Notes under the pieces: generated by a model | Seen by the model: the letters and a program-made list of their open reading frames with translations, nothing else | The model's database searches: none | What the model was told of the DNA's origin: nothing | Position numbers and translations under genes: made by a program | Origin: Enterococcus phage Revolver | Strand: one strand, 5' to 3' | Sequence record: PV544177.1 | Length of the DNA stretch: 64,000 nucleotides | Shown here: one piece after another, positions 19,561-20,387 of the stretch | How the letters are laid out: every line of letters starts with the position of its first letter | Numbering within the stretch: position 1 is the first letter of the stretch

Positions 19561-20387
19561 CAAGTAGTCCATGCTTTAACATGGCTCAGACTATATCTTA
19601 ACTAAATTCGTTACGTTTAGTTCTACGCGCTTCCAAAACAAGAATTTCACTTGTAATGTACTCTACTAGGTTACTCGCTAATATCCTCCCGACAATAGCT
19701 ACCCGTTCGATAGTCGTTACACTTTTACAATTTTTCTCCTCGAAATTTTCTACACAACTTAGCTTTATCTCCAAGTTTATCTTTTCTTTTAAAGTAGCCG
19801 GATACGTTAGCTAACGAAGTAGATAGGTACCTACTAGCCTCTGACATGTCTTTAAAATCAAAAGATTCGTTTGTTTCGATATTGGTTATTTTTACAGGAA
19901 TAGACGTAGTATGGCAAGGTTTTCTCCCTAGTACCCTAAAACCATGTTTAGTGTTCTCTGATATAGTACACCATTCAAGGTTCTCCAAACGGTTGTCTTG
20001 TTTGTCTCCATTTTTATGGTTCACTACTGAATAGTTGTTAGTGTTAGGTAAGAAAGTCATTGCAACCACTCTGTGGACAAGTAGGTACTTCCTAATACCT
20101 TCCTTGTTATACATAGCTGTTTTGTAGTAACCGTCTTTATCAGTAGACAACTTGAAGTATCTATCCTTTTTTCTAATTCTGCCGAGGGTTGAAACCTCGT
20201 AGGCAGGGAAATCAGGGATTGCCTTCCAGTATTCTTTTTCCATATAACCACCTCCTTAAATAAGGAGAAAAATTGTACTTAGCACGGTATTGCCATATCT
20301 TTCAACTTAGGTTCCACCGTTAGCCTACATAAAGTAGACACCCTAGGTTTCTAGGTTCACGTAGTTTATAGTGAGCTATATTCTCTA
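19561..20387 (-). mobile_element. group I intron (827 nt) interrupting nrdE and carrying an HNH homing endonuclease ORF
   Basis: Exon 1 ends ...GGT (U before the splice site) followed by an in-frame TAG. The intron ends ...ACTTG (terminal G) before TTA AAT CTC. Splicing restores GGGVGLNLSNLRALGD. Confidence 0.65.
19725..20243 (-). CDS. HNH homing endonuclease (NUMOD4 + HNH_3 type) encoded within the intron
   Basis: YEVSTLGRIR (NUMOD4-like) and HRVVAMTF...VNHKNGDKQDNRLENLEW (HNH) motifs. Confidence 0.8.
   Translation of the reverse strand: MEKEYWKAIPDFPAYEVSTLGRIRKKDRYFKLSTDKDGYYKTAMYNKEGIRKYLLVHRVVAMTFLPNTNNYSVVNHKNGDKQDNRLENLEWCTISENTKHGFRVLGRKPCHTTSIPVKITNIETNESFDFKDMSEASRYLSTSLANVSGYFKRKDKLGDKAKLCRKFRGEKL

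Follow-up and report, generated by a model that had tools for sequence, protein, structure and literature searches.

The interruption of nrdE

The nrdE gene of Enterococcus phage Revolver, which encodes the large subunit of a class Ib ribonucleotide reductase (RNR), is found on the minus strand in two pieces, exon 1 (20388-20975) and exon 2 (17998-19560), interrupted by an insert of 827 nt (19561-20387) that contains a reading frame of its own. The question raised by this arrangement is whether the insert is removed from the RNA, is the remnant of something that once was, or divides the gene for good. We have addressed it in the window, that is, the whole stretch of 64,000 nt that was analysed, and we hold with high confidence that positions 19561-20387 of the minus strand are a mobile group I intron of the phage IA type, located between codons 196 and 197 of nrdE. 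An earlier note on this DNA, made from the letters alone, had already split nrdE at these positions, and its coordinates are borne out base for base by the open reading frames, the Pfam matches and the alignment with the homologous gene of Enterococcus phage EF24C. The genes and sites concerned are the following.

21264-21293, minus strand: sigma-70-like promoter-like site upstream of nrdH (TTGACA, 18-nt spacer, TG, TATACT; 11/12 matches)
20978-21220, minus strand: nrdH, glutaredoxin-like, 80 aa (Pfam Glutaredoxin, E = 6.9e-12)
20388-20975, minus strand: nrdE exon 1, 196 codons, ending GGA GGA GTG GGT (Pfam RNR_N, Ribonuc_red_lgN, and Ribonuc_red_lgC positions 1-33)
19561-20387, minus strand: predicted group I intron, 827 nt, phase 0 (between codons), opening with an in-frame stop UAG and closing with a terminal G at 19561
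17998-19560, minus strand: nrdE exon 2, 520 codons plus stop, starting TTA AAT CTC (LNLSN...; Ribonuc_red_lgC positions 34-523, E = 4.6e-146)
17011-17985, minus strand: nrdF, RNR small subunit, 324 aa (Pfam Ribonuc_red_sm, E = 5.5e-87)

The open reading frame of exon 1 (20385-20975, 196 aa) has the C-terminus ...KKGGGVG and is closed immediately by TAG at 20387-20385, just as the note had described. The frame of exon 2 extends to 19572, its first ATG being at 19572-19570; the note had denied it a credible N-terminus on the ground that a TAA sits directly upstream of this ATG, and while the in-frame TAA is indeed there, it is one codon away (TAA-AGC) rather than adjacent. The Ribonuc_red_lgC profile is cut precisely between its positions 33 and 34, the former matched by the end of exon 1 (residues 164-196 for positions 1-33) and the latter by the beginning of exon 2 (residues 5-503 of its open reading frame for positions 34-523).

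The base before the insert is U (20388) and the last base of the insert is G (19561), a boundary that is the only one to restore the nrdE reading frame; this terminal G is kept in phage Sw5, in the copies L247, L248 and L249, and in all other copies at the same site. When 20388 is joined to 19560 the result is a frame of 2151 nt, or 716 aa plus stop, with the predicted exon-exon junction ...GGAGTGGGT|TTAAATCTC... and the peptide GGGVG-LNLSN that had been anticipated. The predicted spliced NrdE and the NrdE of EF24C, also 716 aa long but encoded by an unbroken gene, align without a gap (90% identity), and over the junction an alignment is obtained with the solved NrdE structures 9L6O and 1PEM (E = 4e-217 for 1PEM); both the catalytic motif SNLCSEI and CESC at the C-terminus are retained. 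We take the restored segment, GGGVG-LNLSNLRALGD, to lead into specificity-site loop 1 of class I RNR, rather than to be part of the catalytic loop.

The promoter-like site at 21264-21293 is a pattern match from a consensus scan, in which no comparable site appeared between exon 1 and the internal reading frame; it is likely, as judged from this pattern, to mark the start of an intron-carrying nrdH-nrdE-nrdF transcript.

Architecture of the intron RNA

The elements of the predicted ribozyme are listed here in the order in which they would be transcribed.

20393-20388, minus strand: P1 5' strand GUGGGU, the last six bases of exon 1
20371-20376, minus strand: internal guide sequence GCUCAC (P1 3' strand), pairing with the exon GUGGGU, U·G at the splice site
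20358-20364, minus strand: P3 5' strand CUACGUG, partner 19623-19629
20323-20355, minus strand: two extra hairpins between the P3 5' strand and P4, CCUAG/CUAGG (20342-20355) and GUCUAC/GUAGGC (20323-20339)
20284-20320, minus strand: P4 (ACGGUG/UACCGU) and P5, the latter with the motif CCUAAG...UAUGG and the cap UUGAAAGA
20264-20277, minus strand: P6 5' strand UACAAUUUUUCUCC, perfect 14-bp complement of 19726-19739 (duplex -16.8 kcal/mol)
19726-19739, minus strand: P6 3' strand GGAGAAAAAUUGUA, consisting of the last four codons of the internal reading frame (G-E-K-L) and the first two bases of its stop codon
19711-19715, minus strand: P7 5' strand GACUA within the conserved GUAACGACUAUCGAA, partner UAGUC at 19589-19593, forming a pseudoknot with P3; invariant in 27/27 sequences
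19634-19704, minus strand: P7.1 (19669-19704) and P7.2 (19634-19658), a peripheral pair of hairpins separating P7 from the P3 3' strand
19623-19629, minus strand: P3 3' strand CGCGUAG, from family covariation and RNAalifold
19600-19622, minus strand: P8 hairpin AACUAAA/UUUAGUU, from the family alignment, the minimum-energy fold and RNAalifold
19589-19599, minus strand: J8/7 and P7 3' strand AAGAUAUAGUC, the conserved 'S' element of group I introns, from Rfam Intron_gpI and the family model R1
19561-19584, minus strand: P9 hairpin CCAUG/CAUGG (19569-19584), tail ACUACUU and terminal G at 19561, from the fold and RNAalifold

These helices emerge from several calculations. The unconstrained minimum-energy fold of a construct from which the internal reading frame had been deleted (-92.4 kcal/mol) contains P1, P3, P4, P5, P6, P7.1, P7.2, P8 and P9; the RNAalifold consensus of five copies from the same site has the same helices, with 11 compensated pairs. 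In an alignment of 27 family members 85.4% of the cells in nine helices are paired, against 32-42% in slid controls, and the covariation score is 0.521 against 0.09-0.15, a value reached by none of 500 shuffles. The members of this alignment were chosen by sequence patterns in which parts of the core are prescribed, so that conservation is inflated by the selection, while the covariation of the variable stems is not. They were collected by IUPAC pattern scans, since an nhmmer search with the 5' half of the intron as a single query gave 7 matches and was too insensitive. P7 and P4 are nearly invariant, and covariation is thus uninformative for both.

Among the individual helices, P3 is 100% paired in the 27 sequences, with 3-5 types of pair at 5 of its 7 positions and a compensatory G-C to A-U change among the same-site copies; two other pairings tried for it, GGCU/AGCU and then GUGU/GCGC, were dropped in favour of the CUACGUG/CGCGUAG that family covariation gives. 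P4 is 97% paired in the family, and one of its G-C pairs has become A-U in L248; P6, likewise preserved by compensatory changes in L248, is 92% paired in the wider family. P1 is lengthened in the minimum-energy fold by pairing of U1A2 of the intron with U10A11, and reaches 9 pairs in RNAalifold; the guide variant GCCCAC of L247 turns its G·U into G-C and so keeps the pair. The two hairpins between P3 and P4 covary as well (84% paired for the second helix of the alignment and 98% for the third); the same layout is present in more than 120 IMG/VR contigs and in the DNA-polymerase introns of Bacillus phages, and a literature search found no name for it. The P5 motif CCUAAG...UAUGG is presumably the 11-nt GAAA-tetraloop receptor, and GACUA/UAGUC is, we assume, the counterpart of the G-binding P7 in the Tetrahymena intron.

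P7.1 and P7.2 both show compensatory changes among the same-site copies; a placement of the two after the P3 3' strand was discarded, as the family puts both before it. Subgroup IA, the phage type, is defined by the possession of P7.1 and P7.2 at this place (PMC3984707), and the presence of both assigns the intron to it. P7.2 of the Revolver copy contains two U·U mismatches at positions that are fully paired in the copies L248 and L004. Near the 3' end a P9.0 of 2-3 bp is possible, GA(G) with the (C)UU before the terminal G, in which a G·U becomes G-C in L248; no convincing P10 with the exon 2 start UUAAAU could be drawn by hand.

A covariance model of the family, R1, built without the Revolver sequence, recognizes 19588-19720 with 84.6 bits (E = 1.4e-15), its next best match in the window scoring 12.8 bits. 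Together with the P1-P9 helices and the family covariation, this match supports the group I identity that the earlier note had put forward. The Rfam Intron_gpI scan it had suggested as a check returns a partial match: RF00028 gives 16.2 bits (E = 0.27) for this copy, under the gathering threshold of 50, at which no intron is found in the window. We attribute the low score to disruption of the model alignment by the 519-nt reading frame in P6, and probably also by the P7.1/P7.2 insert; seven family members that have no reading frame lie above the RF00028 gathering threshold (52-74.5 bits). No second intron was found in the window with S-element and R-element patterns or with R1 run with filters off. 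Some relatives have a split gene for the terminase large subunit; that of Revolver is unbroken (612 aa).

The predicted endonuclease encoded in P6

19725-20243, minus strand: homing-endonuclease reading frame, NUMOD4+HNH_3, I-HmuI-like, 172 aa (Pfam; PDB 1U3E)
20251-20257, minus strand: Shine-Dalgarno sequence AAGGAGG of this reading frame, 7 nt before its ATG

The assignment of the internal reading frame to the NUMOD4+HNH_3 type, also made in the earlier note, stands, as both domains exceed their Pfam cut-offs (HNH_3 45 bits against 24.8, NUMOD4 38.8 against 23.4), and the protein matches I-HmuI (PDB 1U3E) with E = 2.8e-9. The HNH_3 domain, preceded by a NUMOD4-type N-terminal domain, has its His...Asn...Asn motif intact: no variation is seen at H76 and N88 in 26 homologues, I-HmuI included, and conservation at N75 and N97 is at least 90%. 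The gene does lie within the intron, as had been said, but is not simply free-standing in the middle of it: it occupies the loop of P6, and its end codons are the P6 3' strand itself.

A local hairpin, CUCCUU/AAGGAG, can occlude the Shine-Dalgarno sequence of the endonuclease, and competes with P6 for the bases CUCC (-5.5 kcal/mol for the hairpin, -16.8 for P6). We infer that it may have a regulatory role. On a more speculative and rather doubtful view, as it shares CUCC with P6, and as the end of the reading frame is the P6 3' strand, translation of the endonuclease and splicing would be mutually exclusive in time.

Distribution, mobility and alternative explanations

The same insert of 827 nt is found at this position in public genomes of at least 15 Enterococcus phages, a recurrence that is not due to chance, and the site is polymorphic, as the intron is absent from EF24C and about 20 other Kochikohdavirus genomes. 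The Kochikohdavirus phages that have it (Sw5, PBEF129, ECP3, ENP2309, phiEF17H, KEN16 and others) carry the same element at the same nrdE codon, 98.5% identical to that of Revolver overall and 99% in the non-coding parts, with an HNH protein 4 residues apart; their exons, in contrast, are 75-80% and their structural genes about 78% identical to those of Revolver, which places the window in a separate Brockvirinae lineage. With respect to Sw5 the step in identity falls within 12 nt of the predicted splice site on the 5' side and 8 nt on the 3' side. More diverged copies occupy the same site in other nrdE lineages: the intron is 91.3% identical in L247, where the exons are 64-65% identical, and 70.7% in L248, where they are 61-66%. 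All intron-bearing alleles have GUGGGU before the site, whereas the intron-less nrdE of EF24C type, which reads ...GGAGGAGTCGGC|ATAAATCTT... there, has GUCGGC and is unable to form P1. An intron far more alike than its exons, together with diverged copies at one site, points to horizontal homing, and these sequence comparisons indicate that the intron is spreading between distantly related Enterococcus-type phages. A tblastn search with the junction peptide brought up no further genomes split at this site, and exact-match scans for the first 26 nt of the intron found none in IMG/VR and none in the GTDB representative genomes.

These data also bear on whether the element is still functional. 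It could be the decayed form of a group I intron and have lost the ability to splice, nrdE being a pseudogene, the HNH gene a selfish remnant, and the phage reliant on the host RNR. The two U·U mismatches in P7.2, the lack of a P10 and the Rfam score under threshold are all compatible with decay, and phage vB_EfeBG-143 has a clearly damaged version: other sequence stands in place of the P7.2-P8 segment and of the intron's 5' part, and the annotation of nrdE is broken into several pieces. In Revolver, however, all core helices are intact and compensated, both exons are full-length and gap-free with respect to functional NrdE (SNLCSEI and CESC included), the HNH frame is intact with its motif conserved, and at least 15 phages that are lytic and in culture share the same two mismatches; we therefore regard decay as improbable. 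Even less credit can be given to a genuinely split nrdE, in which an endonuclease gene would have been inserted with no functional ribozyme and the two fragments would be translated separately and then assemble. The GenBank relatives are annotated in this manner, as two RNR CDSs with an HNH CDS between them, and RNR genes offer a precedent in Aeromonas phage Aeh1, where mobE splits nrdA (PMC3045599, PMC3653736). Against it, the only ATG of the exon 2 frame is inside the P9 stem, has no Shine-Dalgarno sequence and would add four foreign residues to the protein; moreover, the 308 non-coding bases around the HNH frame form a covarying group I core, and between lineages that are 20-25% apart in their exons these bases are 99% conserved, which is unexpected for a dead spacer. 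Finally, RNR genes are frequent intein hosts (PMC3653736), but an intein or a group II intron has practically no probability left and is refuted by the sequence, since there is no continuous in-frame reading frame across the insert (a stop codon stands right after exon 1 and the HNH gene is a separate reading unit), Pfam gives only NUMOD4 and HNH_3 for the internal frame, with no LAGLIDADG or reverse transcriptase and with no Hint domain there or on either exon-encoded fragment (in agreement with the absence of intein motifs noted before), and the RNA matches group I instead.

Comparison with known introns

The closest experimental parallel to the Revolver intron is in Staphylococcus phage Twort, likewise in the class Ib nrdE of a Herelleviridae phage. 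In the passages of PMC3653736 that cite Landthaler et al. 2002, the Twort nrdE introns I1 and I2 are reported as self-splicing group I introns, and I2 as encoding the HNH nickase I-TwoI; by that account one of the Twort nrdE introns has an HNH frame, like the intron of Revolver, and splicing and nicking, which are predicted for the Revolver element, have been shown experimentally there. The 3' ribozyme domains are related (R1 matches intron 1 of Twort with 53.5 bits and intron 2 with 26 bits), while the 5' halves are organised differently. Mapped from the Twort genome record onto Revolver NrdE, the Twort introns fall at about residues 235-285 and 572-590, as opposed to 196|197.

Group IA introns are also present in the class Ib RNR genes nrdE and nrdF of the Bacillus cereus group and of SPbeta-type prophages; these introns are in-frame insertions, often opening with a stop codon, that show 5' exon co-conversion and are spread by phages (PMC2504315, PMC2248736). 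The Revolver intron has in common with them the group IA type, the in-frame position and the initial stop codon, but they use several other nrdE sites, and the characterised intron-encoded enzyme there (in nrdF) is a GIY-YIG protein (PMC2248736). In the SPbeta-type phage SPbetaL6 nrdE is contiguous across the Revolver insertion site. The description of this site as a classic one for homing, made in the earlier note, does not hold for the exact position, in view of the Twort locations and of the uninterrupted gene of SPbetaL6.

In ribozyme sequence the DNA-polymerase introns of Bacillus phages SDFMU_Pbc and BSP10 are 74-78% identical to the Revolver intron over 250 nt and share its two P3-P4 hairpins, although SPO1-like DNA-polymerase introns differ from it in host gene and target site. 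I-HmuI (174 aa) and the Revolver protein (172 aa) both consist of a NUMOD4-type N-terminal domain followed by HNH; I-HmuI has Asp before the catalytic His, where Revolver and at least 90% of the close family have Asn.

Proposed mechanism

On the group I reading, an nrdH-nrdE-nrdF transcript would be made, probably from the promoter-like site at 21264-21293, and ribosomes on exon 1 would halt at the UAG with which the intron opens. Folding would produce P1 (GUGGGU/GCUCAC, U·G at the splice site), followed by P3, P4, P5, P6, P7, P8 and P9; free guanosine would attack after the U at 20388, and the freed 3'-OH of exon 1 would in turn attack after the terminal G at 19561, so that the exons would be ligated as ...GGU|UUA... 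and the 716-aa NrdE could be produced. In a mixed infection the HNH enzyme, by analogy with I-HmuI, I-TwoI and I-BasI, would nick the intron-less nrdE allele, and repair would copy the intron and a few flanking exon bases into it.

A more far-reaching interpretation, which we offer tentatively and consider rather doubtful, is that the position after GGGVG is an undescribed nrdE homing site now being invaded, by a lineage that crosses Brockvirinae genera and reaches other nrdE phages, with expression of the endonuclease wired into the folding of the ribozyme.

Implications

The element is of a well-known kind, a selfish group I intron with its own endonuclease gene, and what is known of group I introns in general is unchanged by it. 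The main value of recognizing it is practical. Annotation pipelines yield two 'ribonucleotide reductase' CDSs and an HNH gene, as in the public Kochikohdavirus records, where no intron is annotated and whose nrdE insert is described in no paper found by a literature search; RNR is consequently mis-described here and in at least 15 public genomes, and recognition of the intron restores a single NrdE of 716 aa. The I-HmuI-like protein is an uncharacterised, predicted site-specific endonuclease with a highly conserved RNR motif as its target, and the intron as a whole offers a clean natural example of homing across lineages, with older copies at the same site in more distant nrdE genes.

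The nrdE locus

On the minus strand the genes follow one another in the order nrdH, a 196-codon ORF, a 172-codon ORF, a 524-codon ORF, nrdF and thyA:

20978-21220, minus strand: nrdH
20385-20975, minus strand: 196-codon ORF ending in KKGGGVG, then TAG
19725-20243, minus strand: 172-codon ORF, NUMOD4+HNH_3 (Pfam)
17998-19572, minus strand: 524-codon ORF
17011-17985, minus strand: nrdF
15945-16898, minus strand: thyA

The Pfam model Ribonuc_red_lgC (the RNR barrel domain) is divided between two of these ORFs, with positions 1-33 at the end of the 196-codon ORF and positions 34-523 running from residue 5 of the 524-codon ORF (E = 4.6e-146). 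With 20388 joined to 19560 the coding sequence is 2151 nt long, and its product, a 716-aa NrdE, aligns gap-free and with 90% identity to that of Enterococcus phage EF24C, also 716 aa long and uninterrupted (GGGVG-LNLSN at the junction in the window, GGGVG-INLSN in EF24C), and across the junction with the class Ib NrdE structures 9L6O (E = 3e-225), 1PEM and 6CGL. The insert is 827 nt long and lies between codons; a U precedes it, its first bases are the in-frame stop UAG and its last base is G. The earlier note was correct in its coordinates and in describing nrdE as split by an 827-nt insert with an HNH endonuclease ORF in its middle.

Group I identity of the insert

In the Rfam Intron_gpI scan that the note proposed, nothing in the window matched at the gathering threshold, and a partial match (16.2 bits, E = 0.27) covers AAGAUAUAGUCU. 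Direct Rfam evidence for a group I intron in the window copy is weak; the ORF breaks the model alignment. The joined non-coding parts of the insert (144 + 164 nt) match at least 215 phage records, including ORF-less introns in DNA polymerase genes of Bacillus phages and nrdD introns of Clostridium phages, and pattern scans of IMG/VR gave more than 240 further related loci; 7 ORF-less family members exceed the Rfam Intron_gpI gathering score, at 52-74.5 bits. A covariance model of the P7-to-P7' domain, R1, was trained on 54 family sequences, leaving out the window and near-identical copies. With filters off, R1 matches 19588-19720 (minus strand) at 84.6 bits (E = 1.4e-15), the second-best score within the 64 kb being 12.8 bits, and finds no match in the intron-less EF24C locus. 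[quoted passage not shown] 2002. Together with the predicted P1-P9 architecture and the covariation in 27 family members, the leave-out match makes the proposed assignment of the insert to the group I introns well supported at the sequence level.

Predicted fold

The ORF-deleted RNA was folded with short exon flanks and without constraints. In the minimum-energy structure (-92.4 kcal/mol) P1 pairs exon AGUGGGU and intron UA with UAGCUCACU, with a U·G at the splice site, P3 is CUACGUG/CGCGUAG, and two hairpins, P4, P5, a 14-bp P6, P7.1, P7.2, P8 and P9 are also formed; RNAalifold predicts the same helices from five copies at the same site, with 11 compensated pairs. When these helices and the pseudoknotted P7 (GACUA/UAGUC) were imposed on 27 family members, trimmed of their ORFs and aligned with MAFFT, 85.4% of cells were paired, against 32-42% with partners slid by 1-3 columns, and the covariation score was 0.521 against 0.09-0.15; none of 500 shuffles matched the observed values. 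In P3 100% of cells are paired, with 3-5 pair types at 5 of 7 positions; P4 and P7 hardly vary, and thus are uninformative on covariation either way. All three approaches give a group I architecture.

P7.1 and P7.2 are located between P7 and the P3 3' strand, a predicted placement that is the phage IA pattern. Two U·U mismatches in P7.2 of the window copy are absent from its relatives, and no convincing P10 pairing could be drawn. P5 (20293-20311, minus strand) contains CCUAAG...UAUGG, a putative copy of the canonical 11-nt receptor for GAAA tetraloops. P7.2 is capped by a conserved UGAAAUU loop (19643-19649); it and the P5 motif are a possible docking pair.

Two strongly covarying hairpins lie between the P3 5' strand and P4 (20323-20355, minus strand), a place taken in most group I introns by a junction of 3 nt. 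This layout, for which we found no name in the literature searched, is common to Bacillus DNA-polymerase introns and, among the matches listed, to more than 120 IMG/VR contigs (L128-L244); plain-J3/4 members are also present in the family.

The HNH ORF

The 172-aa protein matches I-HmuI (PDB 1U3E) over residues 6-99 (E = 2.8e-9). Across 26 aligned homologues H76 and N88 never vary, and N75, N97 and H100 hardly do; Asn is the family norm before the catalytic His, the Asp of I-HmuI being the exception. The ORF sits in the P6 loop, and its last four codons and first two stop-codon bases (GGA GAA AAA TTG TA) constitute the P6 3' strand; in the metagenomic locus L248 compensatory changes preserve P6 pairing, the protein ending in RALKL instead of RGEKL. 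The AAGGAGG of the ORF can be hidden by pairing in a CUCCUU hairpin (-5.5 kcal/mol); this hairpin and P6 (-16.8 kcal/mol) compete for one and the same CUCC. Intron ORFs reaching into core sequence are under tight expression control (PMC3984707); that this competition might act as a switch on the HNH ORF is only a hypothesis. A promoter scan found no promoter-like site ahead of the ORF inside the intron, and a strong one (11/12 matches) upstream of nrdH.

Copies in other phages

The window genome and Kochikohdavirus phages are about 78% identical over 24 kb of structural genes and 75-80% in the RNR region.

Identity to the window of copies at the same nrdE site
Sw5 (Kochikohdavirus): intron 98.5%, exons 75-80%
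L247 (Logan assembly): intron 91.3%, exons 64-65%
L248-L250 (metagenomes): intron 70.7%, exons 61-66%

The Sw5 intron shows 12 differences in 827 nt (in the HNH gene, 6 synonymous and 4 non-synonymous codon differences); identity rises from ~70% to ~98% within 12 nt of the 5' splice site and falls back within 8 nt of the 3' splice site. In all these copies the site is preceded by GGAGTGGGT and followed by (T/A)TAAATCT. EF24C, which lacks the intron, has GTCGGC-ATA there; its two upstream differences, both synonymous, would abolish two pairs of P1, the U·G and one G-C. Judged from this one intron-less allele, they fit a co-conversion in which a few exon bases moved along with the intron.

The window phage belongs to the Herelleviridae (Brockvirinae), and no genome in the phage collection is more than about 78% identical to it; the exact HNH protein of the window also occurs on Logan contigs of run SRR16554656 (L245). 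The Kochikohdavirus phages ENP2309 (L003, 2584-3771) and vB_EfaM_LG1 have a second insert, of about 1.1-1.2 kb with a 238-aa ORF, in nrdE exon 2, which is absent from the window; since R1 matches it in ENP2309 at 55.8 bits (L003 3470-3590), it is another group I intron belonging to this family. The metagenomic locus L249 has a SegE-like GIY-YIG ORF between the two downstream nrdE fragments. In phage vB_EfeBG-143 (L007, 1501-2278) the 5' part of the intron (P1 to the second hairpin) and the P7.2-P3'-P8 segment are replaced by unrelated sequence, with the HNH ORF intact; R1 scores only 45 bits there, the nrdE annotation is broken into several pieces, and the intron has probably been rearranged or has decayed. 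In the window the terminase large subunit is intact (one 612-aa ORF, 28474-30312, plus strand), whereas several Kochikohdavirus relatives (ECP3, EFLK1 and KEN phages) have an annotated split terminase and intron-encoded nuclease; intron content therefore differs gene by gene between lineages.

Two other RNA features lie on the strand of the nrd operon. About 4 kb upstream of that operon is a full-length ROOL RNA (24780-25366, minus strand), which scores 242.6 bits with Rfam RF03087 (E = 5.7e-54; gathering score 99.1). It adjoins a cluster of five tRNA genes (22740-24442, minus strand; Rfam tRNA, 42-70 bits), none of which is interrupted by an intron.

Comparison with known systems

The element has three closest relatives. 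Kochikohdavirus genomes carry the identical insert, annotated only as split CDSs, and we found no description of it in the literature searched. The Twort introns share the gene and a related 3' domain, but interrupt it at about residues 235-285 and 572-590 rather than between codons 196 and 197; the third are the SPO1-type DNA-polymerase introns with I-HmuI. The note's remark that this loop is a classic site of homing finds no support in Twort, where the sites differ, or in SPbetaL6; that RNR genes in general are favoured homing targets still stands. The group I introns that phages carry in genes of nucleotide metabolism are inserted in frame, begin with a stop codon, use a highly conserved motif as their site, encode an HNH or GIY-YIG protein and are spread by homing (PMC3984707, PMC3653736, PMC2504315). 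The nrdE intron matches this familiar picture, and is an ordinary, if neat, example of an already known type of element.
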